Shown: positions 8,382-62,754, counted from the first letter of the stretch. The stretch: DNA of 62,754 bases from a virus (IMGVR_UViG_3300025324_000001:1-62754), one strand, 5' to 3'. Made by a program: numbers and translations. The notes: a model not told the origin generated them from the sequence alone.

Positions 8382-8825
8382 TTAAGCTAACACGATGTCG
8401 AGCGCGCCCGCGGCGAACGAGGGCGTGATCCCGGAGGACACCACCAGCGTCGCGGTCAGATCCCCGATGATCTGAAGGTTGCCTGCGCCACCGCTCGCAT
8501 CACCCAGTCCGAATCCGAAGATCGTCGCGCCAGTCACACCGCAGGTCGGGAAGCCTATCGCGTTGTCGTTGTCCGCCGTATCGTTGGTCACCGTCCACTG
8601 CGTCACGTTACGCGCCTCATCCTGCCGTGCGTAGTTGGTATACGCGGTTTCGTTGGTGGTCATGTCACCACCCTCGGTGTGCCCCGGCGAGACAGTCAGC
8701 GTGATCCAGAACACTCCCGCCGTGGCCGAAGCAAGAAGCCCCGCGGCGTCGCCGATGTTCGGGCAGTTCGCGTTAGTGACGATGAGACCGAGTAGATTGG
8801 TCTCCAATGCGTTTGATGCGCTCAT
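8382..8825 (-). CDS. Conserved phage protein, paralog B of 8906..9331 (GC-rich copy)
   Basis: 147 aa. Shares the pattern LL.LI....(slY/fWi)tL(h)T..Pg......E..Y..Y.R......W.....a.N...i.FP....g....hFg(l) with the adjacent gene. Confidence 0.55.
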   Translation of the reverse strand: MSASNALETNLLGLIVTNANCPNIGDAAGLLASATAGVFWITLTVSPGHTEGGDMTTNETAYTNYARQDEARNVTQWTVTNDTADNDNAIGFPTCGVTGATIFGFGLGDASGGAGNLQIIGDLTATLVVSSGITPSFAAGALDIVLA

Positions 8826-8905: not shown

Positions 8906-9331
8906 CTATCGGTCAGTAATTAGTTTGCTGCCCTTCTTGAGTCTAGGGATATACCCGTCCTCGATCTTGATTTCAGGGTCGATCTTACCCTTCCAGAAGA
9001 TTAAGCCTTCTCCTTGAGGACTTAGACCAAGAGTAAAGTGCGTAGCCCTCGACTTTTTACCTCCAACAACCTCCGGAAAGTCGACCGCGTTCGTTAGAAA
9101 GGCTGAATCATCCTCGATTGTTGTGCCTGTCAGACTTCGAGCGATTGCGGTACGACGATATCCCGGATAGTCCACTTCGCTCGAGGACTGCTTATTGTCC
9201 TCAGGAAGTTTGGTATGTAGTGAGAGGTACAAACTTGCCGAAGCTTGCTGTACGTTCGCGGCGACTCCTGGAATCGCATCTCCGTGAAGAATCAGTCGCA
9301 GTTGAGCGTTTGCAAAGCCGACACTTTTCAT
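8906..9331 (-). CDS. Conserved phage protein, paralog A of 8382..8825
   Basis: 141 aa. Same motif series (LYLSLHTKLPED...EVDYPGYRR...NAVDFPEV...THFTLGL). Its start overlaps the portal stop. Confidence 0.55.
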   Translation of the reverse strand: MKSVGFANAQLRLILHGDAIPGVAANVQQASASLYLSLHTKLPEDNKQSSSEVDYPGYRRTAIARSLTGTTIEDDSAFLTNAVDFPEVVGGKKSRATHFTLGLSPQGEGLIFWKGKIDPEIKIEDGYIPRLKKGSKLITDR

Positions 9332-12485: not shown

Positions 12486-13591
12486 TAGCCAACCTTCTGT
12501 TGACCTTCCGGCTCGTCGGCACTATCCAGGTTCTCTCCGGGAGCTCCGGTAACATCGAAAGGGATTAAGTCCTCCCCGTTGATGATCTCGTTTGTACGCC
12601 CTCTTCCTTTGAACCTTCGAGCTGGCGCTCCTGCAAAAGGATTGTCCAGAGAGGATCCCTGTGTTTGAGTGCTCTTGGCGACGCGGATCACAAGCTCTTG
12701 CATTTGTTGAGCGGCCTCAGGGTCTGCTAATACGCGGGAGAGGATCTGGCGGCCTGCTACTTGACGGCCAGCCTCATCATAGGTGTTTCCTTGTCCCTGT
12801 CCAAGCTTAGAGCCCAACGTCCGGAGAATCATCTCGAACGTCATGTCTTCAGGGGTTTCTTTCTGGCTCAGAGGCCCAGCAGCTGGGAGGCCAACGCTTA
12901 CACGTTGTGCTGCGATGAGACGCGCAAGAAGGTCGACAGCAGTCTTCGCAGACATGTTATCGAAGAATGCCGGTGTCTCGAGAACCTTCTCCTTGAGATT
13001 CCTTAGCAGATTGCTAGCGAGTGTATAGTGCTCATCCTCGACGGTCATTTGTCTGCGAAGACGGAGGTGACGATAAGCAGCCTCCTTGTAGAGGTCGTGT
13101 GCTTTGGCTCTTGCGCGCCAGTAGTACAGGATGCTGAACTCATACAACTGTCGCCCGAGCTGAGTAGATGGGACTCTTTGACCTTCCGAGAGACCTTGAA
13201 CTTGACTGGCGATTCGGATGAGCTCTTCGTTCTGCGCAAGTTGCGTCAGTTCTCGCGGACCCTCGTTGAGGGAGTCGAGATAGATCTGAAATGCACCGTA
13301 CGCGAAGCCGGGTTCGAACTCGAGTTTATGCCAGAAAGGGCGACCATCTCCTAGTGTGGGGTACCCATGTTCGAAGCTCAGATCGACATACGCGCTGCGG
13401 AGACTATGTGCTTCTACTTCGGGTTTCTCGTATGTAGTGGGGAGAAGATCGACACGGTAGTACCCAACTGGGAGACCTTCAGCTGTGACGGGGATGTGGC
13501 CGAAGGCCCTTTGCAGTAGAATGGCTCTATAAGGAAGAGGAAAGCCTGAGGTGCTAGCTGGTGCCGTTGCTACTTGATCAGGAGCGCCCAT
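12485..13591 (-). CDS. Unknown 368-aa protein at the terminase small subunit position
   Basis: First gene of the packaging operon, with a 1-nt overlap with terL. I recognise no motif; the TerS assignment rests on position only. Confidence 0.3.
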   Translation of the reverse strand: MGAPDQVATAPASTSGFPLPYRAILLQRAFGHIPVTAEGLPVGYYRVDLLPTTYEKPEVEAHSLRSAYVDLSFEHGYPTLGDGRPFWHKLEFEPGFAYGAFQIYLDSLNEGPRELTQLAQNEELIRIASQVQGLSEGQRVPSTQLGRQLYEFSILYYWRARAKAHDLYKEAAYRHLRLRRQMTVEDEHYTLASNLLRNLKEKVLETPAFFDNMSAKTAVDLLARLIAAQRVSVGLPAAGPLSQKETPEDMTFEMILRTLGSKLGQGQGNTYDEAGRQVAGRQILSRVLADPEAAQQMQELVIRVAKSTQTQGSSLDNPFAGAPARRFKGRGRTNEIINGEDLIPFDVTGAPGENLDSADEPEGQQKVG

Positions 13592-13869: not shown

Positions 13870-14085
13870 ATGAAGCAAGCTCAAGCTCAACCTACGACTC
13901 CTGCAAGTCAAGAGTTTGATGCAGCGAAGTTCGTACAAGAAGTAGGAACAAAGTCGGCTGCGATTCGCAGACTGACTGCAGAAGGAAAGACGAGGTCGGA
14001 AGTTGCAAAGATGCTCGGGATCAGGTACCAACACGTAAGGAATGTCCTGATCACTCCGATCAAGAAAGAAGCAGTCAAGAAGTAG
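13870..14085 (+). CDS. Small HTH DNA-binding protein, paralog 1 (71 aa)
   Basis: Strong RBS aggaggttgtATG. The HTH-like TRSEVAKMLGIRYQHVRNVL is shared with 15013..15378. Confidence 0.7.
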   Translation: MKQAQAQPTTPASQEFDAAKFVQEVGTKSAAIRRLTAEGKTRSEVAKMLGIRYQHVRNVLITPIKKEAVKK

Positions 14086-14091
14086 ATGGGT

Positions 14092-14119
14092 GGGGAGGTC
14101 GAGAGACCTCCCCTTTATC
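14092..14119 (+). terminator. Rho-independent terminator
   Basis: ggggaggtc-gaga-gacctcccc followed by tttatca, 7 nt after the stop codon. Confidence 0.7.
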
Positions 14120-14147
14120 AACGTAGCACAATAGAGGAGTAGTCACG

Positions 14148-14297
14148 ATGCTAGTCACACGTCAACCTCACCAACTCCACAATGCTCGGGCCTTGCTCGA
14201 GTGGAAGGGTCCTGGTGCAGCTGCGCGGTACATGAGGTTCTGCGGCTGGTCGCTGCAGGCAGCCTTGTGGTGGCTCCTAGGTGTAGGAGCTCGGTAG
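14148..14297 (+). CDS. Hypothetical small protein (49 aa)
   Basis: ORF below the track cut-off. RBS agaggagtagtcacgATG. Translation: MLVTRQPHQLHNARALLEWKGPGAAARYMRFCGWSLQAALWWLLGVGAR. Confidence 0.3.
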   Translation: MLVTRQPHQLHNARALLEWKGPGAAARYMRFCGWSLQAALWWLLGVGAR

Positions 14298-14376
14298 GAC
14301 GTAGCTAGAGCCTGGTGTGAGCAGGCTCCATGGTACGCTCTGCACACCGCAGATGCGACCGTACTAGGAGACTGAC

Positions 14377-14622
14377 ATGGAAGTACTTAGGCTCAGTATC
14401 AAAGACGCTCGGCTGGTGGAGAAGCTGGCGGATGGGACGTTGGAGATCGAGCTTCTCCACGTAACCCCGATTCGGATCCCTCCCGAGTTTTCGGAAGCCC
14501 TTCACAAGGACTTGACGGAACAGGGGGTCACCCATAAGAACGCGGACAGACTGGTGGACACAGCAATGGATGCGATCCACGAGGAGTCCGTAATCCAAGT
14601 TCTCCGGGATCGCACATCCTAG
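14377..14622 (+). CDS. Hypothetical protein (81 aa)
   Basis: RBS taggagactgacATG. Followed by a UUCG-loop hairpin. Confidence 0.55.
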   Translation: MEVLRLSIKDARLVEKLADGTLEIELLHVTPIRIPPEFSEALHKDLTEQGVTHKNADRLVDTAMDAIHEESVIQVLRDRTS

Positions 14623-14633
14623 GGAGGGATCAG

Positions 14634-14655
14634 AGAAAGGGCTTCGGCCCTTTCT
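14634..14655 (+). terminator. Stable UUCG-tetraloop hairpin (terminator-like; weak U tract)
   Basis: agaaagggc-ttcg-gccctttct, 12 nt after the stop of 14377..14622. Confidence 0.5.
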
Positions 14656-14876
14656 TGCTACTTCCGGGGGACCGGGCGGACCAGTCCGTCCAACCCACGA
14701 GTACTCCTTCGGAGGCCTGGTCCCCGCCCGAGCGCTATAAGCCTAGCCCTCGCGACCGCTGAAGCCAAGGGACCGGTCATGTATAAGATATAGGACTAGT
14801 CCGACCGAGCGCTCAGAGCCTAGCCCGTGCAAATCTCGGGACGGTAAAATCATATAGGCGCCCATATGATGACCTC

Positions 14877-14906
14877 TTGCTACCATACTATGGACTACTA
14901 TATAAT
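14877..14906 (+). promoter_or_regulatory. Sigma70-like promoter (TTGCTA-18-TATAAT) for HTH paralog 2
   Basis: Reads ctcTTGCTAccatactatggactactaTATAATataggtg. It has the same GGACTACTA-TATAAT-ATAGGT context as other promoters. Confidence 0.65.
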
Positions 14907-15012
14907 ATAGGTGTAAGCTGGTTGATTGTAGGGGTGGTGAAGTTGATCCGCCAGCTACCGCCGAGCATGTTGCTCGGTGACAAGCGCTCTTTAACATAGT
15001 CGGAGGTTTACC

Positions 15013-15378
15013 ATGGCGAAAACCGCCAAGCAACAGGCAGTGCAGAAGCAGGCCCCGCAACCGCAACCGGCCCCGGCAGTTCAGACGCCGCAGGTCGCGA
15101 CGGTCCCGATGGAAGCGCCCAAGATGGAGGGCGTAACCGCCGAGAACTTCACGACCCACAAGGCGGAAGACCTCATCAAAGGGTTCGGCAACAAGAGCAA
15201 CGCGATCCGCGGCCTCGCGGCGCTGGGCATCAAGCCCGGCCCGATCTCGAAGCACCTCGGCATTCGCTACCAGCACGCGAGGAACGTCCTCTCGCGACCG
15301 CTGAAGCGGGTGATCAAGGAGCAGCGCGACAACGCGAGCCAGGGCGCAGTGCCCGGAGTAGCCACCGTCCAGAAGTAA
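15013..15378 (+). CDS. Small HTH DNA-binding protein, paralog 2 (121 aa) with a PQ-rich N-terminal tail
   Basis: RBS cggaggtttaccATG. Contains PISKHLGIRYQHARNVL. The N-terminus reads QKQAPQPQPAPAVQTPQ. Confidence 0.7.
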   Translation: MAKTAKQQAVQKQAPQPQPAPAVQTPQVATVPMEAPKMEGVTAENFTTHKAEDLIKGFGNKSNAIRGLAALGIKPGPISKHLGIRYQHARNVLSRPLKRVIKEQRDNASQGAVPGVATVQK

Positions 15379-15387
15379 GGCGGTGGT

Positions 15388-15459
15388 ATGAAAGCTCTCG
15401 CATACGGAGCTTTCGTCGGAATCCTGATCGTAATGGCCATTATCTGGTACATACGATAG
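15388..15459 (+). CDS. Possible 23-aa hydrophobic micro-protein (MKALAYGAFVGILIVMAIIWYIR)
   Basis: ATG 10 nt after the HTH2 stop. One predicted TM helix. Followed by the hairpin at 15482..15503. No homology evidence. Confidence 0.25.
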   Translation: MKALAYGAFVGILIVMAIIWYIR

Positions 15460-15481
15460 CCAGGATCCGATGAGTTAGATG

Positions 15482-15503
15482 GGAGGAGGTTGCGGCCTCC
15501 TCC
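15482..15503 (+). terminator. 8-bp GC hairpin (ggaggagg-ttgcgg-cctcctcc), terminator/attenuator-like
   Basis: Perfect stem followed by agtttcc. It overlaps the far-upstream alternative start of the next ORF. Confidence 0.4.
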
Positions 15504-15538
15504 AGTTTCCAACCTGCAAGACGCAAAAGGAGCCTGCA

Positions 15539-15736
15539 ATGGCCAAGCAACAGTTCAGCGTCAAGATGCGACCGGATCGTACGACTCCGGGAACGTTTCT
15601 CTACGCGGTTCCGTCCGATCAACGGGCGGATGCCGCGGTGAAGAACGTGTACATCTCGAAGGATGCGTTCGGTGCGATGAGTGCCCCTCCTGGGGAGATC
15701 ACCATCACGGTCGCGTACGACGACGGCAAGAAGTAA
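15539..15736 (+). CDS. Hypothetical protein (65 aa)
   Basis: I prefer the internal start with RBS aaaaggagcctgcaATG over the track start at 15479, which lies in the hairpin. Confidence 0.55.
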   Translation: MAKQQFSVKMRPDRTTPGTFLYAVPSDQRADAAVKNVYISKDAFGAMSAPPGEITITVAYDDGKK

Positions 15737-15748
15737 GCCGGCGGCAGT

Positions 15749-15793
15749 GGAGCGGAACTCCTACGAGAGTGGGGTTCCGCTCCTCTTCTTTTT
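15749..15793 (+). terminator. Rho-independent terminator closing the plus-strand module
   Basis: ggagcggaac...gttccgctcc followed by tcttcttttt. Confidence 0.7.
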
Positions 15794-15920
15794 GCGGCTT
15801 AGGGACTGGTCAGTCCTACTATAGGGACCGGTCGCCCGCATCTCAGAGCTGCTCCCTAAGTCGGGCCCTCGATTGGCTTCCCGCAGTTTCCTAGTTGCTA
15901 CCATCAACTGACTACAAAAC

Positions 15921-16197
15921 GAAGTAACGAAGTCAACTCTTCCCGAAGTTCTAACTAGTTGATTTTTAACGGCTTTAGTAGTTTAGTAGTTTGGGTTCGT
16001 AATTACTCTAAGTGATCAAAAGTATTGGGGGGATTACCTTTAGGAATTTCGGTATATCAAACGGACTAATGTTGCCTATGTCCAATCCTTCCCCAACTTC
16101 TAACCACTTAAGAGATTAGGAAGTCAAACTACTAAACTACTAAATCCCTATAAAATCAACTAGTTACAACTGAGGGAGCAGTTTACTTCGTTACTTC
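15921..16197. repeat. 277-bp imperfect palindrome (arms 15921..16014 and 16105..16197) with TAGTAGTT doublets and AACTAGTT cores
   Basis: Arm segments are reverse complements by direct reading: gaagtaacgaagt/acttcgttacttc, ctaactagttgatttt/aaaatcaactagtta, tttagtagtttagtagtttg/caaactactaaactactaaa. Confidence 0.85.
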
Positions 16198-16331
16198 CTT
16201 TGATAGTCCGCATCATCCCCATTACTCCCTTCCTCACCCTCATCTTCTTGCTTTTGCTTCACTCTCAAACTTGGGTACTCTGGACAGAAGGTGTCGTACT
16301 TCCTAACAGGTTTCTCATCATCTGGAACCAC
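16191..16331 (-). CDS. Possible 46-aa acidic protein, last ORF of the minus-strand array
   Basis: GTG start after aaggtaag. Translation: VVPDDEKPVRKYDTFCPEYPSLRVKQKQEDEGEEGSNGDDADYQRK. Its stop lies inside the right palindrome arm. Confidence 0.25.
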   Translation of the reverse strand: MVPDDEKPVRKYDTFCPEYPSLRVKQKQEDEGEEGSNGDDADYQRK

Positions 16332-16454
16332 CTTACCTTATAACGACAAGGCTTACCTCATTGCTCTTTACTACTGATCCACCACATACAGCCACAGCAA
16401 TGAGGTTTAGACAACTTCATAATGCGGGTCTGCGGCGCAAATTCCGGATGACAA

Positions 16455-16503
16455 TCCGAAACCGAAAACCGAAAACCGAAGCCAAATCCGAACTGAAAAC
16501 CGG
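16455..16503. repeat. Degenerate heptamer A-tract array (CCGAAAA-like x ~6)
   Basis: Reads tccgaaaccgaaaaccgaaaaccgaagccaaatccgaactgaaaaccgg, immediately downstream (minus sense) of gene 16512..16736. Confidence 0.7.
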
Positions 16504-16511
16504 ACTCGAGG

Positions 16512-16736
16512 CTAGAAGGGATCATCCGACATTCTGCCGATAGGCTCATTCTCACCAGGAGGCACTTCAAAGTTCCGAACTGGACCAAAGGCTCCGCACT
16601 CGCTTCCGAGACAGAGGTAACCTTCTAACCCGCCACACTTGCTACCAGTCACCTCTCCGGAGGAATCAACATCGTGACGAGACATAAAGAGGCGGAACCC
16701 CACCGACTCACCGCAGTTTGGGCATTTGAGCTTCAT
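16512..16736 (-). CDS. Zinc-ribbon protein (74 aa)
   Basis: Start refined to MKLKCPNCGESV with RBS aaggagtaacATG. Has CPNC plus downstream Cys pairs. Confidence 0.55.
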   Translation of the reverse strand: MKLKCPNCGESVGFRLFMSRHDVDSSGEVTGSKCGGLEGYLCLGSECGAFGPVRNFEVPPGENEPIGRMSDDPF

Positions 16737-26292: not shown

Positions 26293-26673
26293 CTACCGCT
26301 TCACATCGTAGGGTCTACGTCCAGAACCTTCGTACCGAGCGTGGCGAGTTTGTTTCTCGACCTTCCGCTTCTGCCGATACTCCGAGCTGGACAGTGAACT
26401 CCGCTGGACGATTTCCGGCTCTTCTCTTGCTAGTTGCCACCATTTTCCTTGGATACCGCAGAGGGCTTTAGTTCCCCGTACGATCGAGATAGAACGAGGG
26501 TAGACGCCATCAAAGCGCTTGACAAGAGCTCCAGGCGAACAGCAGTACAAGCGAACTTCAGAACCGAGCTTGAGCTCCTGAGGAGTTGGAATAAGAGTCC
26601 AGCTCCAGTCACATTTGGAGCAAGACCTGTCTTGGCGGGGTAGAGCCGCAACCAGCGGGGGAACCTTGTCCAT
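26293..26673 (-). CDS. Hypothetical protein (126 aa)
   Basis: Start refined to MDKVPPLV, 1 nt after the upstream stop. Confidence 0.45.
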   Translation of the reverse strand: MDKVPPLVAALPRQDRSCSKCDWSWTLIPTPQELKLGSEVRLYCCSPGALVKRFDGVYPRSISIVRGTKALCGIQGKWWQLAREEPEIVQRSSLSSSEYRQKRKVEKQTRHARYEGSGRRPYDVKR

Positions 26674-26674
26674 C

Positions 26675-27100
26675 TTATCCTGCTGCGCCAGGAGTCTGAG
26701 CGATTGGAACGATCTTGAGCTGCAAAACTTCCGTTGTCTTGCAGTGCTCGCCGTACCACTTGTCGCCCATATCGCGCTTGACGGAGTCGCGGTCGATATC
26801 CGAGCGTACCATCTTGACATAGTGTGCTTCGAACTTTCTGCCAAGAGTAACAGTCTCGGTGCCTGGATCGGCAGGAACAGGAAGTGTCTGCTTCAGCACT
26901 CCCTTCGCAGCTTCGTGCCACTTCCCCAGCACTTTGAGCTGGGAATCGACTTGAGCTGCAAGATCGATCAAGTCGCCTCGATCCATATCGGAAAATTTCC
27001 AACCAAGGACCTCGAGCGACGACTTGACTTGAACTGTTGAGGGATCGATGCCGGGCGCACAGACTACAAACAACTGGACTGCTGAAGTGGGCTTGTTCAC
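26675..27100 (-). CDS. Hypothetical protein (141 aa)
   Basis: Start refined to GTG after gaaaggagaccttt. First gene downstream of P3. Confidence 0.5.
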   Translation of the reverse strand: MNKPTSAVQLFVVCAPGIDPSTVQVKSSLEVLGWKFSDMDRGDLIDLAAQVDSQLKVLGKWHEAAKGVLKQTLPVPADPGTETVTLGRKFEAHYVKMVRSDIDRDSVKRDMGDKWYGEHCKTTEVLQLKIVPIAQTPGAAG

Positions 27101-29201: not shown

Positions 29202-31697
29202 TTAAAGTTGGCTACTATGCAGCTTTAACCACTTGTCGTACGATGTTGCTAGCCCCCAGTGAGTCCCGATCTTGACGTCTACAACGAACTTAATCGGAGT
29301 ACTAATCCACTTAGTAGGCACCTCCTCCATAGTTTCCTTGATGATGCCTGAAACTTGCTGGATCCTGTTGTGCGAATCAGCAGGACACTCTGTAAGTGTT
29401 GAGTCGTGGATCAGGTTAACGAGGTAGGCACCTTCCTTCTTGAGCTTGGGGGCCATCTCCATACCAGAGTGAATGGTAAAGTCAGAAACTGGACTCTGCA
29501 TATGGAAGTTGGCAAACTCGTTCTGAATCCCTTTCAACCGTTCTGCCCCAACGACTCCTGGCCGGCGCTTACGTCCGAAGACTGTTACTAACGTCCGACC
29601 TTCGCGAGGTGCTCTCCGACAGTTTGCAATGAACTTTGCAGCACCCGGAGCTCGCGCAAACCATGCATCAATCAATCTTTGTGCTTCCTGCCCGGGAATA
29701 TCGTGCTCTTCCGCTACGGAGAACGCTTCACGACCATACGGTATACCAAAGTTGATCGCCTTAGCACGGATCCTCTGATGCATGTCAAAGTTCGGGCCGT
29801 ACATTGCTACTGACACTTCATCGTGCAAGTTCCGTTTGCCGTCTAGAAAAACGCTAGTAAGAAATTCGTCCTGCGACAGAGCTCCGAGCATTCGGAGTTC
29901 CGCCATGTTATAGTCGCCTTCGATCAGAACGCTTCCAGGCCTAGCACGGTACATTCGACGGAATCTCGGCTCTCGAGGAATGTTCTGAATGTTAGGCTCT
30001 GAGCTCGATAACCTTCCAGTGGGAGTAACATGTAGTTTGAACGTTGTATGTATACGATCGCCGACGGCTAGCTTCTCGATGGCCGCTACATAAGTCGACA
30101 GCATCTTCGTAACAGATCTATACTTCCGGATAAGCTTTACTGCTGGATGCGCAGGTAGCTTATCTAGAGTCTCCTTCCGGGTATCCGTTGGTCTCTTACC
30201 TTTGATCCTTAAACCATACCCGTCGTAGAGTAATGCAGCTACTTCGCCGGGGCTGTTCGGGTTGATCTTATAGCCTACCAACTTAGTAAGCTGTTCCTCG
30301 ATCTGAACGAGCTCCTGTTCTAAGCCGATTTCACTTTCGAGAGATGTCACTAGTCCTTTAGCTACATCATCAGGAGTAGCACCTGATCTATTGATCCTCA
30401 CATAGTCCCAGTCTATATGGATGCCGTACATCTCAATGCCAGCCAGGAGATGAGACGCCGGAATAAGAGTCTTAGAGTAGAGCAGCTCAAGTTTTGGATC
30501 TGCGGCTATTAGAGGCCTCTTGTGGCGATGAACGAGATAAGTCTTCTTCAAGTCCTTCGCCAAGTAGTCGAAAAGTACCGGCTCAGGGACGTTAGCGTAG
30601 GAGTCGGACTTTTTCGGAGCCCACTTCTTGAGCATATGCTTGTGCTCAGGGATCCCTAGATCATTCTTGGCTTGCTCATCGAGATCGTGGTCCTTTGTCG
30701 CTTCCGACAGGGCGTAGCTCTCTAATCCTGTGTCCTCGTAGTTGGCACATTCACCTTTCCGTAAGATGCCAGCTTGAGTGAGGAACTTCTCATCAAACTT
30801 ACCGAACTGCCAAACGAAACGGAGACCGGCAGAAAGCAGAAACCGGCGAAGATAGTGTCTGTACGCTCCATCAAGTGACCTTCCAGGAACTATAGCCGCG
30901 CAGTCGCCCTTATCCCGGATATAGAATCCTATACACAGGATCCTATCCGTCAGATAGTTGAACCCTGATGTCTCAATATCAGCGGCTACCTCAACTGGAG
31001 CCAATTTCCTAACCTTCTTCGCGTACTTGACGAAGTCCTCGAGACGTTCTAGTACGACGTTGTCAGGATCTTCCCATAGATGGTCTCTGACTGTGATCTC
31101 CTTGCCGAACGCGAGATCAATTGCTAGAGATAGGTCGTCTCGGAACACTTTAGGATTGCCTGACCCACGAAGCAGATAGGCAGGATGAACGCTCGGCACC
31201 ACTGTTACTTCAGCTCCAGTCTCCGGATCGGATATAGCATAGACCTCACCGCGCCTTTGCGTTATCTTGTAGTTATAGTCCATTGTAAGGACTGAGTTCG
31301 ACCAAGCTCCTAGAGCTAGAACGCATTTGCGTGGATGTGAAAATATCTGTCCTAGAACTCTCTGCCGACACGCAGAACAGGCTCTAGCCTTGTACTCCTT
31401 ATCCCGCTGTTGGTTAGCAGTCTTTGGCGGACGACACTGCATCGCATTGATAATATACGCGTCGTCGAAGTCAAACCAGTCAGGAACGCATTTGTCCAGG
31501 AGGTCCCCGCTAGGTCCACAGATAGGAGCCCCGTACTTTAGCTCCTCAGAGCCTGGCGCCTCTAGGATGATAACAAGGGGACTCTTCGGGTCTCCTCTCG
31601 CTCCAACCCGACGAGAGCCAAACATTGGACATGCTGGGCACGGCTCAGGAGGAAACTTCTTATGAGGAAGCGGAAGGAGGCGATTAAACTGTGTCAC
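29202..31697 (-). CDS. polA: DNA polymerase I family (3'-5' exo plus PolA) with an N-terminal family-4 uracil-DNA glycosylase-like domain
   Basis: UDG-like: CPACPMFG, ILEAPGSEE...GPSGDLL, VHPAYLLR. Pol motifs: DYNMAELRML, KAINFGIPYG, LIHDS. Confidence 0.8.
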   Translation of the reverse strand: MTQFNRLLPLPHKKFPPEPCPACPMFGSRRVGARGDPKSPLVIILEAPGSEELKYGAPICGPSGDLLDKCVPDWFDFDDAYIINAMQCRPPKTANQQRDKEYKARACSACRQRVLGQIFSHPRKCVLALGAWSNSVLTMDYNYKITQRRGEVYAISDPETGAEVTVVPSVHPAYLLRGSGNPKVFRDDLSLAIDLAFGKEITVRDHLWEDPDNVVLERLEDFVKYAKKVRKLAPVEVAADIETSGFNYLTDRILCIGFYIRDKGDCAAIVPGRSLDGAYRHYLRRFLLSAGLRFVWQFGKFDEKFLTQAGILRKGECANYEDTGLESYALSEATKDHDLDEQAKNDLGIPEHKHMLKKWAPKKSDSYANVPEPVLFDYLAKDLKKTYLVHRHKRPLIAADPKLELLYSKTLIPASHLLAGIEMYGIHIDWDYVRINRSGATPDDVAKGLVTSLESEIGLEQELVQIEEQLTKLVGYKINPNSPGEVAALLYDGYGLRIKGKRPTDTRKETLDKLPAHPAVKLIRKYRSVTKMLSTYVAAIEKLAVGDRIHTTFKLHVTPTGRLSSSEPNIQNIPREPRFRRMYRARPGSVLIEGDYNMAELRMLGALSQDEFLTSVFLDGKRNLHDEVSVAMYGPNFDMHQRIRAKAINFGIPYGREAFSVAEEHDIPGQEAQRLIDAWFARAPGAAKFIANCRRAPREGRTLVTVFGRKRRPGVVGAERLKGIQNEFANFHMQSPVSDFTIHSGMEMAPKLKKEGAYLVNLIHDSTLTECPADSHNRIQQVSGIIKETMEEVPTKWISTPIKFVVDVKIGTHWGLATSYDKWLKLHSSQL

Positions 31698-32560: not shown

Positions 32561-32610
32561 TGTGGCCCCCTGTCTGCACCTATCAAGCGAAAATCCATCC
32601 GATAAACGAT

Positions 32611-32640
32611 ATTATAAAGTAGTCCTTATAGTGGTCTCAA
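32611..32640 (-). promoter_or_regulatory. Sigma70-like promoter P7 (TTGAGA-18-TATAAT) upstream of dpdA-polA
   Basis: Minus strand reads gacTTGAGAccactataaggactacttTATAATatcg. Confidence 0.55.
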
Positions 32641-32659: not shown

Positions 32660-33289
32660 CTATGTCTTGCTTTCCAGTCTCACAAGCTGGAAGAATTCGT
32701 CCTTTGCTGCTGGAACATCCCGGAAGAGACCTCTGAGAGTCGAAGTGGACGTCGGAGTGTCATGCACTTGTACTCCGCGCCCCGTCATGCAGCCATGATC
32801 GGCTTTGATCACCACCATTACACCTTTTGCTCTGAGCCGACTCATCAGAATGTCAGCAACGAGGTCTGTACACGTTTCCTGCATCCGAGGCATCTCGTGG
32901 CCGACAGCTGCAACGATTCGGGTGAGCTTCGAGATTCCCACGAGTCTCTCTGTAGGAATATAACCAATATGGCATATTCCTAGAACTGGCAAGAGATGGT
33001 GAGGACAGATCGTACGAAAGGGAATATTACTCTGGACCACCATCCCCTTGTAGCCCTGCTCAGAGTGAGTTGATGTGAAGTCGACCTTCAGAACCTCCCT
33101 CTCGTCGTATGGTCTGAGGTACTCTCGAAGGTACTTGACAAACCTCTCCGGAGTACCGTTGAAATTCTCGTCCATCAGATCAAACCCGAGAGTCTCGAGA
33201 ACCGCCGCCATCAAATTGGAGGCCTCTAGAATCGGACTTCCTTTTTTGCGCCTTGCCATTTGTTTCCCCTGCCTAATTGGTTTGGCCAT
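32660..33289 (-). CDS. folE: GTP cyclohydrolase I
   Basis: ICPHHLLPVLG and VVIKADHGCMTGRGV motifs. Confidence 0.85.
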   Translation of the reverse strand: MAKPIRQGKQMARRKKGSPILEASNLMAAVLETLGFDLMDENFNGTPERFVKYLREYLRPYDEREVLKVDFTSTHSEQGYKGMVVQSNIPFRTICPHHLLPVLGICHIGYIPTERLVGISKLTRIVAAVGHEMPRMQETCTDLVADILMSRLRAKGVMVVIKADHGCMTGRGVQVHDTPTSTSTLRGLFRDVPAAKDEFFQLVRLESKT

Positions 33290-34092
33290 TATGGTAGCCT
33301 TAAGAACTTGTGCAGTTGTAGACTAACACGGTAATTGTACTTCATCGCGAGTACTCCGCACAGCTGAATGTTACGCTGGGAGCGCTCTTCATCCCTTACT
33401 TGCTTAGTAAACTTCTGGTCGGACATCTCGTCCAGACTCAAAGCAAAGGCAGCAGGAATGTGAACAATGTTCTTGTACTCTTCACATGGCTGAAGCCATA
33501 TAGTGTTGTGGCTATATATTTCTGGCCGATAGAGCTTCAGCTTCTTTCCAGGCTCTTGAGTGCTCATAATCGGAAGACCATCGACTGGTGACACCTCCCC
33601 TTCCCGGATAAGATACTTCCAGTTCCAACAGTGCTGGGCAATCTTCTCGTGCACCTTTCCTGTCTTAGGGCTGCACACAATTGTCAAAGCGTCGATACCT
33701 ATGTAATCTTCTAGTCCTGGTACCCAAACAGTACCAGCCGTTTCGATCTGGATTCTGAACCCGAGGTCGCTCAACTTGTCACAGAGGAAAACAATGTTCT
33801 GAAGAAGTGGTTCTCCTCCAGTAACAACTACTAAGTCCGTCTCTGTAATCTTGTCCGTAGCAGCGTGTTCCTGAATTTCGCGGACGATAGAGTCGACGTT
33901 CATCGCTTTCTTGCGGCTCTCGAAGTCCGTATCGCAGAAGTGACATCGAAGGTTGCATCCTGCAAGCCGTAGGAAAACTGCAGGCTGACCAGTAAAAGGG
34001 CCTTCGCCTTGGATGGTGGAGAAGATACTCTGAACCTCCAGCTCGAGACCAGTACCGAGATGCTGTCTTCTAATTGGGTTCTTGCCGAACAC
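33289..34092 (-). CDS. queE: 7-carboxy-7-deazaguanine synthase (radical SAM)
   Basis: GEGPFTGQPAVFLRLAGCNLRCHFCDT. Confidence 0.85.
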   Translation of the reverse strand: MFGKNPIRRQHLGTGLELEVQSIFSTIQGEGPFTGQPAVFLRLAGCNLRCHFCDTDFESRKKAMNVDSIVREIQEHAATDKITETDLVVVTGGEPLLQNIVFLCDKLSDLGFRIQIETAGTVWVPGLEDYIGIDALTIVCSPKTGKVHEKIAQHCWNWKYLIREGEVSPVDGLPIMSTQEPGKKLKLYRPEIYSHNTIWLQPCEEYKNIVHIPAAFALSLDEMSDQKFTKQVRDEERSQRNIQLCGVLAMKYNYRVSLQLHKFLRLP

Positions 34093-34627: not shown

Positions 34628-35368
34628 TTAAGCTGCGGAGTAGACGGTGGGATCGACGACACCGGCCTTTGTAAAACCCGCCTTACGCGCACGACACGTT
34701 GGACACGTACCACAGTGCACCTCCCCACCTTTGTAACAACTCCACGTTAGATGCCAAGGCACACCAAGCTTCTGCCCTAGCTCCACAATCTCGTTCTTGT
34801 ACATCTCGATCAGAGGCGCTTTGAGCCGGATAGAGTGGTAAGTACCGATATAGACAGCCGCTGCCATTGCCCCGACGAAGTCGAGCCTGCAGTCCGGATA
34901 GGCGTCGCCAGCTGCATCTTCAGCATGTGCCCCGAAGTAGATCCGACCTTCCCACTTGGCGCCTGCGCCTACCACACTGGCAGCTCTTTTCGCAATCGCG
35001 ATGTTTCTGTTTATCTGCTCGATGCTATGAGCTGCAATCCCGGCGATCCGCGAAATGAGCTGACCGTTTCTGAATGGCACATACGTCGGACTCACTCCCT
35101 GGATCTCCTGATAGGAGATGTTCGGGACTTCAGCTGAAGGATCGGTAAGCATCACCTTCGGGATGCCAATAATCGGATGAATCTCGTGTACAACTGACAT
35201 GTAGTCGCACACCCTCTTTGCCATCTCCATCTCCTTCCGGTGCCGCTGACCGTAGTCGATCGAGATAGCGAGAACATTCTCGCGGCCGTAATCGCGAACT
35301 GCAACTGCTAAACAAGTCGAACTGTCGATACCCCCCGACAAGAGTACAAAGCCTTGAACTAAGTTCAC
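34628..35368 (-). CDS. queC: 7-cyano-7-deazaguanine (preQ0) synthase
   Basis: VLLSGGIDSSTC PP-loop and the C-terminal CYKGGEVHCGTCPTCRARK zinc motif. Confidence 0.85.
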   Translation of the reverse strand: MNLVQGFVLLSGGIDSSTCLAVAVRDYGRENVLAISIDYGQRHRKEMEMAKRVCDYMSVVHEIHPIIGIPKVMLTDPSAEVPNISYQEIQGVSPTYVPFRNGQLISRIAGIAAHSIEQINRNIAIAKRAASVVGAGAKWEGRIYFGAHAEDAAGDAYPDCRLDFVGAMAAAVYIGTYHSIRLKAPLIEMYKNEIVELGQKLGVPWHLTWSCYKGGEVHCGTCPTCRARKAGFTKAGVVDPTVYSAA

Positions 35369-41471: not shown

Positions 41472-41987
41472 TCAGCGTGAGTGCGAAGCCCTTCGGCGCC
41501 GTTGGCTGTGCGCTCCATCATATGCATCATAGATGGTGTATTGCTTCGGAGTCTCCTTGCGGAACATCTCTTGGAGACCCTTCACTATCTTAGGTACCTC
41601 AACATCCAGGTAGTGCTCGATACTTGGATTCTTGCCTCGCGGAGGCCGATCATCCACTAGGACGCCGTAATGCGCAGCGTCGATGATAATGCCAGCACAA
41701 CAACGGATATAGCCCATATGAGCTACCCGCGTCTTGCTATCTTGGTTGTCGCCAGCAAGAAACTTGAAGAGGTGGCGATAGATTGCAGCGAGGTAAACGC
41801 TTGCCTTTACCCGCTTCATACGCCAGTTGTACCGGCCGTACTTCTGCGCACCTTCATACCATGCAAGAGCCTCCTCGATGACTGCCGTCTCAGGGATCAA
41901 CGATGCGTCCAGCTTTAATTGTGCGAGGAGATCCTTCGGGTTGACGAGGTTGAAGTACGGATCCTTCGGACGATGTGTTTTGCTCAT
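41472..41987 (-). CDS. DUF5664-like protein (dATP/dGTP diphosphohydrolase N-terminal-domain family, putative)
   Basis: Start refined to MSKTHRPKDP (ATGA overlap with ruvC). Contains GAQKYGRYNW...AAIYRHL. Confidence 0.45.
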   Translation of the reverse strand: MSKTHRPKDPYFNLVNPKDLLAQLKLDASLIPETAVIEEALAWYEGAQKYGRYNWRMKRVKASVYLAAIYRHLFKFLAGDNQDSKTRVAHMGYIRCCAGIIIDAAHYGVLVDDRPPRGKNPSIEHYLDVEVPKIVKGLQEMFRKETPKQYTIYDAYDGAHSQRRRRASHSR

Positions 41988-42481
41988 GACCTTCCCCTTG
42001 GTTGGTGAACCTTCGCTACACTGAACAGAAGGTAGTAGCATGCATGCCGAATTGCATCACGCGCATGCTTCTGACCCTCCTGGTAGACGCCCCACGAACG
42101 AAGCTTGTCGTCCGTGCAAAATCCCTTAGCTTGTTGCGCCATCTGCTTGACTAGAGACACCTCGTTCAACTGGTAGTAGCAGATATACTCTGTAGCTCCA
42201 ATCAGTCTGGGAGTATGTAAACCTGCCCATGCATGATCCTTCGCCTTCCAGCTGTACACCCGATAGTCTTCAATGACTACCACCAAATCCGGAGTGCGAT
42301 AAGTTCGGATGTACTTCCAGACTTCCCAAGCAGCTTGAGGCATCAAACCCGTCGTAAGCTGCCGCGCATCAAGGAGGTCAGGACCTTCGAATACACAGGC
42401 TCCAGTAGTTTCACCTGGATCGAGCGCAAGAACTCGCTGCTTCGAGTCCTTGAGAGCCTCCCTAAGGAGGTTGCTGGACAT
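41984..42481 (-). CDS. ruvC: RuvC-like Holliday junction resolvase
   Basis: VLALDPGETTGA catalytic motif; 165 aa. Confidence 0.7.
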   Translation of the reverse strand: MSSNLLREALKDSKQRVLALDPGETTGACVFEGPDLLDARQLTTGLMPQAAWEVWKYIRTYRTPDLVVVIEDYRVYSWKAKDHAWAGLHTPRLIGATEYICYYQLNEVSLVKQMAQQAKGFCTDDKLRSWGVYQEGQKHARDAIRHACYYLLFSVAKVHQPRGRS

Positions 42482-42583: not shown

Positions 42584-42832
42584 TTACTTCGCCGGCGCAA
42601 CAGCGGGGGCTGCTTCCTTCTTCGGCTTGGTTGCCGCGAAGACGATCTGGTACGGAACGCCGAGTTCTTTGGCGATCTCGCCCCGCTTCGCGCCTTCCGC
42701 GTAGCGCCTCTTGATGTAGTCGACGCGGCGTTCGCCGGAATCGAGCACGATCGCTGCGCCGATCTTCTTCGCGGCGGGCTGGGGCTGGACTTGCGGCTTC
42801 TGGGGCTGGACTTGCGGTTTCTGTGCGGCCAT
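42584..42832 (-). CDS. Small HTH DNA-binding protein, paralog 3 (82 aa) with PQ-repeat and AKP-rich tails
   Basis: RBS aaaggagacagtcATG. Contains KPQVQPQKPQVQPQP, GEIAKELGVPYQIVFAAT and a C-terminal KKEAAPAVAPAK. Confidence 0.65.
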   Translation of the reverse strand: MAAQKPQVQPQKPQVQPQPAAKKIGAAIVLDSGERRVDYIKRRYAEGAKRGEIAKELGVPYQIVFAATKPKKEAAPAVAPAK

Positions 42833-45437: not shown

Positions 45438-45500
45438 TGCGCTGTACTACCGTTATAGCCAATCGATTACCGGCATAACATAAACGGCTAGTACTTGTCA

Positions 45501-45530
45501 ATTATATAGTAGTCCCTTAAGGAACTACAA
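45501..45530 (-). promoter_or_regulatory. Sigma70-like promoter P6 (TTGTAG-18-TATAAT) upstream of primase/helicase
   Basis: Minus strand reads ccgTTGTAGttccttaagggactactaTATAATtgac. Confidence 0.5.
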
Positions 45531-62326: not shown

Positions 62327-62743
62327 TTACGTGATTGGGACTCGATTTTCGCCGGCTTCCGCTGCCGGCAGTACTGTGAACCAGAAGTTGAGCGCGAACT
62401 GCGGCCGAGTAGTGTCGTCCTGTCCCAAATAAGCTACATCCCCCATCTGGTTACAGGAGCGATACATATCGCCCAACACTGTAGTGGACTCCATCCCCAA
62501 CAAAGCTGCTGCTACAGCAGCGGCTTTCAACCTTGCAGCCTCGTATCCACCTTTCGCGCCGCGCACGATAATGGAAACTGACGGCTCATTGTAGAGTAGG
62601 TGTGGAAAAGGATTCCTTCCGCCTGGGCTATTGATCAGGACGATCGTATCGGGTGCATCTGGCATCCTCCCGATTGCAGTTCTCCACCCTGTAGGTGGCT
62701 GTGGTGCGGCCGTAAGAAAGTTGCCGATGCCTTCTGCCACCAA
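62327..62743 (-). CDS. Tail terminator-like protein, putative
   Basis: 138 aa. Last neck-series gene before the major tail protein. Its start lies in the terminal repeat, so it follows 118..579 on the circle. Confidence 0.4.
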   Translation of the reverse strand: MVAEGIGNFLTAAPQPPTGWRTAIGRMPDAPDTIVLINSPGGRNPFPHLLYNEPSVSIIVRGAKGGYEAARLKAAAVAAALLGMESTTVLGDMYRSCNQMGDVAYLGQDDTTRPQFALNFWFTVLPAAEAGENRVPIT

Positions 62744-62754
62744 AATGTCCTTGA
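62656..62754. repeat. Terminal 99-bp exact direct repeat, copy 2 (identical to 1..99)
   Basis: Verbatim identity read base by base. Confidence 0.9.

Follow-up and report, generated by a model that had tools for sequence, protein, structure and literature searches.

A conserved palindromic element with paired IHF-consensus sites in a family of tailed phages, a candidate replication origin

Described palindromic and repeat-bearing control sites

To our knowledge, replication origins and other cis-acting sites are undefined for almost all uncultivated phages, and they can rarely be predicted from sequence. In the HSV-1 origins oriS and oriL and in the SV40 core origin, inverted short recognition words flank a central spacer across which complexes face each other head to head, and oriL is, over its full length, a palindrome that can fold into a hairpin. 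These origins belong to eukaryotic viruses, use the initiators UL9 and large T antigen, respectively, and have no IHF-type sites. Twofold-symmetric origins are unusual among tailed phages. Iteron origins (R6K gamma ori, pSC101, lambda ori) consist of AT-rich non-coding DNA with repeated short words and IHF-type sites, the bends of which fold the origin into a compact complex. They carry 4-7 direct iterons of 17-22 bp in one orientation, usually lie by or inside the initiator gene and often include DnaA boxes. In the packaging sites P1 pac and lambda cosB, a central region is flanked on either side by clustered short repeats, and an IHF site provides the bend that joins the terminase-binding repeats; the cut site is defined, and the location is within the small-terminase gene or next to it. 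The telRL sites of N15 and PY54 are large palindromes of siphovirus genomes, perfect through the centre and with the protelomerase gene adjoining. The iss region of T5 is a large non-coding region (1.2-1.7 kb, within the terminal repeat) with many inverted repeats and 8 DnaA boxes, which is conserved unlike the neighbouring genes and was proposed to stop DNA injection, a function that is debated (bioRxiv 10.1101/866236).

The element described here, of about 300 bp, belongs to none of these families and is undescribed. By analogy, it would work most like the dyad origins of HSV and SV40 and the IHF-assisted origins R6K gamma and pSC101. With the former it shares inverted short words around a central spacer and, possibly, complexes placed head to head, but no homologue of UL9 or large T antigen was found here, IHF-type sites are present and the centre is not clearly AT-rich. 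With the latter it shares AT-rich non-coding DNA, repeated short words and matches to the IHF consensus; it differs in having mirrored doublets with 8-bp units only (no set of at least three direct repeats of ~17-22 bp), no DnaA boxes and no recognised initiator. The repeat clusters on both sides of a centre and the IHF-type sites are also found in P1 pac and lambda cosB; however, our element lies 2.3-5.5 kb from the small-terminase gene rather than in it or immediately beside it, conservation is lowest in its centre, and it is crossed by assemblies. Like telRL, it is a large palindrome in a siphovirus genome, but it is variable and not palindromic in the centre, and the scanned ORFs revealed no protelomerase. 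A protelomerase target was rejected on these two grounds, and a parS-type centromere because neither ParA nor ParB was found among the same ORFs. The T5 region is several times longer, contains DnaA boxes that the element lacks and shows no sequence similarity to it.

Genomic setting and anatomy of the element

The DNA analysed (the window, 62,754 nucleotides) is a circular assembly whose first and last 99 bases are identical (end overlap), giving a genome of ~62.65 kb with 53% G+C from what looks like a lytic siphovirus. Nearly all genes are on the minus strand. Their order starts with the small terminase, the large terminase (Terminase_6 type), the portal and the head genes, and continues over the circular junction to the tape measure and a gpJ-like tail protein. 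Replication and recombination genes come next (DUF3854 primase-helicase, SNF2 helicase, PD-(D/E)XK exonuclease, Sak4-like protein), then queuosine-type genes, PolA fused to a UDG-like domain, ligase, thymidylate synthase and ribonucleotide reductase, and small genes close the array, the last of them ending at 16512. The phage codes for its own replisome, with the DUF3854 primase-helicase, PolA, the SNF2 helicase and the ligase. The plus strand carries a sole small cluster (13870-15736), which codes for two paralogous HTH proteins (71 and 121 aa). Among the larger ORFs of the window, our scans revealed no integrase, recombinase, ParA/ParB, protelomerase, dedicated resolvase or recognisable, Rep-type replication initiator, and no plasmid or lysogeny genes. 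Rfam and tRNA scans of the window were empty, and a nucleotide search of isolate phages with the window region gave no match.

An earlier note on this DNA had reported a large palindrome in the largest non-coding stretch of the genome, and the element indeed lies within the longest run without an ORF of at least 75 aa (15895-16357; the second longest is 353 nt). Its placement between the terminator of the plus-strand cluster and the end of the minus-strand array also stands, with the extent of that array amended, since it crosses the circular junction and reaches the small-terminase gene at 13591 (Table 1).

Table 1. Positions of the element, its modules and the neighbouring features in the window
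Feature	Position	Strand	Basis or remark
Small terminase gene	13591-12485	-	First in gene order, before large terminase, portal and head genes
71-aa paralogue of the GIRYQH(V/A)RNVL HTH family	13870-14085	+	Paralogy
121-aa HTH protein, motif GIRYQHARNVL	15013-15378	+	Candidate binder; nearest conserved neighbour in most relatives
Intrinsic terminator of plus-strand cluster	15746-15790	+	Inverted-repeat search; outside the element
Left arm of inverted repeat	15910-16003		Repeat search (94 nt); self reverse-complement alignment
Module A, left: GAAGTAACGAAGT, two GAAGT units 8 bp apart	15921-15933	+	GTAACGAAGT found only in the element within the window
Module B, left: TAACTAGTTGATTTT; minus strand AATCAACTAGTTA; contains palindrome AACTAGTT	15952-15966	-	IHF-consensus match
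Module C, left: TTTAGTAGTTTAGTAGTTTG (TAGTAGTT doublet, 8-bp period)	15974-15993	+	Repeat search
Inner left modules: CTCTAAGTG (16006-16014), TTGGGGGGATT (16025-16035)	16006-16035		Position check
Variable centre, weakly symmetric	16036-16083		Sequence and length differ among relatives
Inner right modules: AATCCTTCCCCA (16084-16095), CACTTAAGAG (16105-16114)	16084-16114		Position check
Right arm of inverted repeat	16115-16208		Repeat search; self reverse-complement alignment
Module C, right: CAAACTACTAAACTACTAAA	16125-16144	-	Repeat search
Module B, right: AAAATCAACTAGTTA; IHF-consensus match at 16154-16166	16152-16166	+	Pairs with left copy
Module A, right: ACTTCGTTACTTC on top strand	16185-16197	-	Pairs with left copy
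Terminator-like hairpin at end of minus-strand array	16482-16509	-	Outside the element

The palindrome is real and far beyond chance. Its two 94-nt arms are 83% complementary and separated by 111 nt; they are the same repeat as that delimited before (arms of ~94 nt at 15921-16014 and 16105-16197), with slightly shifted limits, and all the matching segments quoted at that time were found in place. The gapped alignment of the region with its own reverse complement spans 15910-16208 and scores 196, against 23 +/- 4 (maximum 40) in 200 shuffled sequences (z ~44). DNA folding, proposed as a check, predicted one long hairpin for the top strand of the element (-70.5 kcal/mol, z = -12). Weak symmetry does continue into the centre, as claimed, whereas the special AT-richness attributed to that part does not hold (60% A+T, versus 63% for the whole element). 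Across relatives, the whole element has 61-72% A+T and the surrounding loci 46-53%, and the centre is not consistently the most AT-rich part (47% A+T in L171).

Alignments revealed the same order of modules in each arm, which is, from outside to inside, A (GAAGTAACGAAGT), B (TAACT.GTTGATTTT), C (TTAGTAGTT.AGTAGTTTGAC) and the inner words. Modules A and C each consist of (A/T)AGTA-type words arranged as a tandem doublet with a period of 8 bp; the tandem doublet and the self-complementary word noticed before in each arm correspond to the TAGTAGTT doublet of module C and to the palindrome AACTAGTT in module B. Words of the form (A/T)AGT(A/C/T) are enriched about 10-fold and their strand polarity is mirrored: the left half has 10 on its top strand and the right half has 9 on its bottom strand, compared with ~0.9 expected. 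Within the window, GTAACGAAGT and AACTNGTTGAT are confined to the element, which also holds 4 of the 12 copies of TAGTAGT. The string AGTAAC.AAGT of module A is invariant in 11 relatives, and module C is kept as AGTAGTT or AGTACTT, the changes being mirrored between the arms. In the subgroup formed by L011, L018 and L023, the polarity of the (A/T)AGTA-type words is reversed, yet still mirrored. The inner words end in GGGGA on the left and in TCCCCAA on the right, the latter being nearly invariant in the right arm of relatives.

Measured in the window from the centre of module B, module A is placed 31 bp further out and module C 26 bp further in. Hardly any gap interrupts the alignment of the arms between module A and the inner modules, the A-to-B spacer being 18-19 nt in all the relatives checked (read from alignments), and large indels are found in the centre. 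From centre to centre, the two B sites are 164-260 bp apart among relatives, with no significant helical phasing (Rayleigh p ~0.2). The element shows a clear internal grammar, in which bend sites and tandem words keep a fixed spacing around a centre that is free to vary.

The other strand of module B (AAAATCAAC.AGTTA) matches the IHF consensus WATCAANNNNTTR perfectly and has an A-tract next to it. There are 3 perfect matches to WATCAANNNNTTR in the 62.7-kb window (1.09 expected), and two of the three are the B sites (15952-15964 on the minus strand, 16154-16166 on the plus strand). The columns that are invariant across relatives (TAAC..TTGA) coincide with the bases of the IHF consensus. The B site is present in all relatives, including MaInes, and the B pair is the one feature retained even in MaInes, L006, L023 and L087. 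In the classic lambda H' site, an A/T-rich tract lies about one helical turn from the consensus. The geometry here is different, since AAAA(A) directly precedes ATCAAC on its 5' side in both arms, and in relatives. The conserved C.AG bases and the AAC..GTT palindrome leave room for another reading of module B, in which a phage protein may take the place of the host IHF.

Conservation and co-variation among relatives

Using the neighbouring HTH protein as a query, we identified 55 metagenomic homologues. Their contigs share a layout in which the portal, TerL and TerS genes are on one strand and the HTH cluster on the opposite strand, followed by a gap, and a homologous palindrome occupies that gap in L006, L007, L009, L011, L014, L016 and L018. 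A DNA-pattern scan of viral contigs (IMG/VR) with the pair of B sites gave ~140 matches, of which ~135 were discarded as chance, leaving L023, L063 and L087 as real; a match in L090 proved to be an unrelated repeat array. Similar scans of metagenomes added L159, L161, L163, L171, L173 and L176. In total, the element was found in ~18 distinct relatives, with one copy per genome. Among them are the cultured phages MaInes (16460-16690) and StAshley, both of which have Brevundimonas as host. The only paper mentioning these two phages (PMC10070969) does not discuss the region.

The comparisons delimit a sharply bounded island of conservation. The 299-bp core matches more than 20 loci, and the flanks of the window (15737-15909 and 16209-16520) match none of the relatives. 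In a strain that is 99.8% identical over 8.7 kb, the element is unchanged and six SNPs are found at 16245-16273, just to its right.

The long terminal inverted symmetry and the varying position relative to neighbouring genes could suggest a mobile miniature inverted-repeat element, and the conserved non-coding region of T5, full of inverted repeats, provides a precedent for a proposed injection-stop signal. We consider both readings highly improbable. The element is present in a single copy per genome, within a constant genome neighbourhood. A pattern across modules A and B (GTAACRAAGT ... TAACTNGTTGAT) matched 185,579 bacterial and archaeal genomes only four times, each time as a single arm with no second arm, as expected by chance, and no prophage or MITE copy of the element was found in this set. 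No transposase was found, inspection of the ends revealed no target-site duplication, and the DnaA boxes of the kind proposed for T5 are missing. A MITE or IS remnant was rejected because of the single copy, the lack of copies in the bacterial and archaeal genomes scanned and the restriction of the words to the element within the window.

Arm co-variation in relatives had been proposed as a test of the palindrome, and the result was strongly positive. In 11 complete elements (60 pairs of positions), 90.7% of the pair cells are complementary and double changes occur in 25 of the 60 pairs, which none of 500 shuffles reached. When the partner was slid by 1-3 columns as a control, pairing fell to 23-47%. 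Double changes are found inside the words (e.g., AGTAG/CTACT versus AGTAC/GTACT) and also in the non-conserved A-B spacer. The element is therefore functional and not a chance palindrome. Of the 78 non-Watson-Crick cells, 17 are G:T, 7 are A:C and 54 are other combinations. As these mismatches are mostly not of the wobble type and there was no match in Rfam, the symmetry is at the level of DNA rather than of an RNA hairpin, and a structured RNA was rejected on the same evidence.

These observations bear on the possibility that the DNA hairpin or cruciform is itself functional, as a structure-specific priming or nicking site or as a nuclease-processed junction, the extruded arms being recognised instead of sites in the duplex. 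In the window and most of its relatives, the sequence has a strong tendency to fold as a hairpin (z from -4 to -17), the co-variation reaches the non-conserved A-B spacer with up to four pair types per position, and the differences between tandem copies are mirrored position by position between the arms. In MaInes and StAshley, a gene for endonuclease VII lies ~0.9 kb upstream. Nevertheless, particular words are conserved beyond what pairing would demand, the hairpin potential is weak in L018, L087 and MaInes, and neither a protelomerase nor a dedicated resolvase is among the ORFs scanned. Template-switch correction at quasi-palindromes could also yield mirrored changes without selection. In addition, the arms of close relatives are at least as similar to the orthologous arm (0.68-0.77) as to their own partner (0.58-0.70). 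This also indicates that rapid homogenisation of the arms is not the main force, while in distant subgroups both arms of one element have changed in parallel. Overall, a role for the extruded structure alone appears improbable. We are instead largely confident that the element is a cis-acting, dyad-symmetric site for the assembly of protein-DNA complexes, with IHF-type bend sites and tandem recognition words.

Gene context and candidate functions

The neighbourhood of the element varies among relatives. In the window and in L007, L014, L016 and L018, it follows the HTH gene and a 65-aa gene; two further genes intervene in L011, and in L009 its place is upstream of the HTH gene and within the plus-strand cluster. 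In L006, MaInes and StAshley, it lies between genes of the same strand, with a strong promoter just beyond, and in the latter two phages the divergence point of the replication operon and the early genes is ~1.5 kb away. Variable genes separate the element from the small-terminase gene, which is 2.3 kb away in the window, 3.7 kb away in L011 and ~5.5 kb away in MaInes.

The earlier note had stressed the convergence of the two transcription directions and listed a bidirectional terminator among the possible roles, in agreement with the position of the element between convergent gene arrays in the window. However, outside the element each array has a terminator of its own, with a GC-rich hairpin and a T-run after it, whereas the element is AT-rich, ~300 bp long, with arms of 94 nt and without T-runs, and its neighbours are on the same strand in L009, L006, MaInes and StAshley. 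This varying context and the separate terminators rule out a bidirectional terminator, a reading to which we give next to no credence, and make the convergence incidental. The word GGACTACT does abut the -10 of three promoters, as noted before, but the idea that it is a recognition word shared with the element found no support, as the two do not co-vary in relatives: L005 and L007 have GGACCGCT in the promoter, yet keep AGTAGTT in the element.

Metagenomic contigs stop within or close to the element unusually often. The ends fall in the centre for L005 and L175, in the left module C for L015 and in the right arm for L008 and L162, and they lie ~20, 44 and 247 nt past it for L063, L160 and L007, respectively. 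Such ends could point to a packaging site (pac- or cos-like, or part of a terminal repeat), where terminase, helped by IHF-type bending, would act on the words of both arms and cut at or close to the centre. For most relatives, the element is found on the side of the small terminase, in the large non-coding gap where a linear map would start, and the repeat clusters flanking a centre, together with the IHF-type sites, recall P1 pac and lambda cosB. We nonetheless regard packaging as an unlikely role. The contig ends are scattered, with no single terminus, and long contigs as well as the circular window read through the element. The region that would be cut is the least conserved part, and the intervening genes separating the element from the small-terminase gene amount to a whole gene array in MaInes. 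Large terminases of the Terminase_6 type, to which that of the window belongs, usually perform headful packaging from a pac inside or beside the small-terminase gene. Finally, MaInes and StAshley share 99% identity as far as the centre of the element, beyond which their sequences part, and strain-level mosaic junctions of this kind in the centre are sufficient to explain the assembly breaks.

The HTH proteins encoded nearby are the likeliest binders. Their family, defined by the motif GIRYQH(A/V)RNVL, has 2-3 paralogues per genome, usually at 0.2-1.3 kb from the element (~1.1 kb for the nearest gene in MaInes). AlphaFold predicts for the 121-aa protein a confident helical domain of DNA-binding type (residues 45-105), whose recognition helix has four invariant residues (Q87, H88, R90 and N91). 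Searches of Pfam and NCBIfam, a PDB sequence profile and a Foldseek search of the PDB with the AlphaFold model gave only generic HTH matches, and the model only weakly resembles the HTH domains of Spo0J or KorB (E > 1). The promoter of the HTH gene carries a different, conserved 20-bp palindrome (14850-14869), which is likely to be its operator.

The element could accordingly be a platform for these paralogues that is neither origin nor pac. As a "super-operator" with a regulatory or architectural role, or as a site akin to a centromere, it could titrate or position the proteins for the timing of expression or the organisation of the genome. The expansion of the family, the usual distance of ~1 kb or less between the element and one of its genes, the persistence of this proximity in L009, where the element is upstream instead of downstream of the HTH gene, and the parallel between an invariant recognition helix and invariant DNA words are in line with this. 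On the other hand, the element of the window lies between two terminators, away from any promoter, and the HTH gene promoter has its own likely operator. The phage looks lytic and no ParA, plasmid or lysogeny genes were found, so there is no evident need for partition, and the link with the HTH gene is loose in MaInes. Such a platform is a reading we find rather doubtful.

Among the roles proposed before (replication origin or cruciform, packaging site, array for the HTH proteins), circumstantial evidence favours an origin, and we tentatively propose that the element is the bidirectional replication origin of the phage; the function, the binding proteins and the bending are what we infer here. 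An origin is favoured because the element is autonomous, independent of the transcription context, AT-rich, single-copy and strongly constrained, because bend sites and repeated words occur together in it, as is the case in origins, and because it lies near replication and early genes in the cultured relatives. Moreover, a phage that codes for its own replisome and has no recognised initiator is expected to carry an unrecognised pair of origin and initiator. Other observations weaken this proposal. GC and AT skews (window, L006 and MaInes) track the gene strand, the flip of GC skew in MaInes being at 15.0 kb and the element at 16.5 kb; the skew flips with the gene strand and not at the element, and for this reason GC skew cannot locate the origin. 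There is no evident classic unwinding element in the centre, whose AT-richness is inconsistent. Only 4 near-matches to DnaA boxes were found in 18 elements (2.3 +/- 1.5 in shuffles), none of them in the window, so that DnaA boxes are not above chance, and 8-bp doublets replace the iterons of 17-22 bp. Finally, no initiator was recognised, the HTH fold is generic and the HTH gene of MaInes is rather distant.

If the element is an origin, a host IHF-like protein would sharply bend the DNA at each B site, and the bend would presumably set modules A and C of one arm side by side. Phage DNA-binding proteins, most probably the 2-3 nearby HTH paralogues, could then bridge A and C. Two mirror-image folded complexes would face each other over the variable centre of 50-110 bp and might melt or expose the DNA, allowing the replisome with the phage primase-helicase and PolA to load in both directions. 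Pairing of the arms within each strand, as a hairpin or cruciform, may aid the opening. In its boldest form, this proposal would have a family of tailed phages, including the cultured Brevundimonas phages, start replication at a palindromic origin similar to those of eukaryotic viruses, where replisomes are loaded head to head by two mirror complexes, folded by IHF-type bends and built from small HTH proteins of an undescribed family, with transient extrusion of the 95-nt arms as cruciform or hairpin taking part in the opening. We think it unlikely that all of this holds together.

The element family spans from metagenomes to two cultured Brevundimonas phages, which makes these hypotheses directly testable, and it is at the element that mosaic junctions and assembly breaks concentrate. 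Should it prove to be a packaging or regulatory site instead, it would still be a key control region of these genomes. If the origin reading is true, it would represent a rare case of a twofold-symmetric origin in a tailed phage and would assign a role to the small HTH proteins, an expanded family that currently has no known function.

Promoter words and the HTH family

Three window promoters share the layout TTGnnA-N10-GGACTACT-(A/T)TATAAT, and one of them belongs to a 121-amino-acid member of the HTH family, the small paralogous DNA-binding-type proteins carrying the motif GIRYQH(A/V)RNVL. In two metagenomic relatives (L005 and L007) the promoter word is GGACCGCT, yet AGTAGTT is retained in their elements (the AT-rich, mirror-symmetric inverted repeats), indicating that the promoter word does not covary with the palindrome. 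A separate 20-bp perfect palindrome, TCATATAGGCGCCCATATGA, occupies window positions 14850 to 14869, 7 bp upstream of the −35 box (14877 to 14882) of the 121-amino-acid HTH gene promoter, and is kept in L005, L007, and a third relative, L014. It is probably the operator of this promoter. The window also holds two copies of TTGCTACCAT followed 5 to 6 nt later by GACTAC, one at the HTH gene promoter (14877 to 14886) and one at the left edge of the element (15895 to 15904); the latter copy is not followed by a −10 box and was not observed in relatives.

All the related genomes encode two to three paralogs of the HTH family, for which no named homolog was found in Pfam, NCBIfam, PHROGs, or PDB.

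Coordinates of promoters and genes in the window and in two cultured Brevundimonas phages
Feature	Location	Strand	Remark
Promoter with GGACTACT layout	window 14877-14906	+	121-aa HTH gene
Promoter with GGACTACT layout	window about 32590-32640	-	
Promoter with GGACTACT layout	window about 45480-45530	-	
HTH family member	window 13870-14085		
HTH family member	window 15013-15378	+	121 aa
HTH family member	window 42641-42715		possible member
GTP cyclohydrolase I	window 32660-33289		
Radical-SAM QueE-like	window 33289-34092		
QueC	window 34628-35368		
dATP/dGTP diphosphohydrolase-like	window 41472-42041		
Recombination endonuclease VII	L020:117-557		MaInes
Recombination endonuclease VII	L186:238-678		StAshley
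Recombination endonuclease VII	MaInes 26489-26899		second copy

Variation and mosaicism around the element

In a comparison with a strain of 99.8% identity (IMG/VR contig 3300025165_000133), 6 of the 16 differences cluster in 29 bases (window 16245 to 16273) immediately to the right of the element, and none lies inside it. The MaInes and StAshley loci (L020:1400-1790 and L186:1521-1915) are 99% identical until the element center and diverge beyond it, which places a mosaic recombination junction in the center. The right B site of StAshley departs from the IHF consensus at one position. Both phages carry, ~0.9 kb upstream of the element, a gene for recombination endonuclease VII, which cuts junctions and cruciforms.

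By chance, we found dense TGTCAACCAGTTGACA-type repeat arrays in both orientations in an unrelated viral contig (L090:600-980; IMGVR_UViG_3300035183_000174). The arrangement resembles that of iterons or of a centromere.

Assembly form, gene content, and DNA modification

The two window ends share 99 identical bases (1 to 99 and 62656 to 62754), a k-mer overlap of the kind that marks an assembly as circular, so the minus-strand gene array continues across the ends. The family A DNA polymerase (29202 to 31697) has a uracil-DNA-glycosylase-like domain fused N-terminally to its exonuclease and polymerase domains. Two neighboring paralogous genes (8382 to 8825 and 8906 to 9331) have Pfam matches to Gp80 (podophage GP4 fiber protein) in a genome of otherwise siphovirus-like appearance.

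The genes for GTP cyclohydrolase I, QueE-like, QueC, and dATP/dGTP diphosphohydrolase-like proteins indicate that the DNA of the window phage is probably modified with a 7-deazaguanine derivative. In a winter "ssDNA" virome treated with dsDNase, all 17 contigs aligned to the relatives MaInes and StAshley (PMC10070969). Nuclease-resistant modified DNA would fit the presence of these contigs in such a virome.
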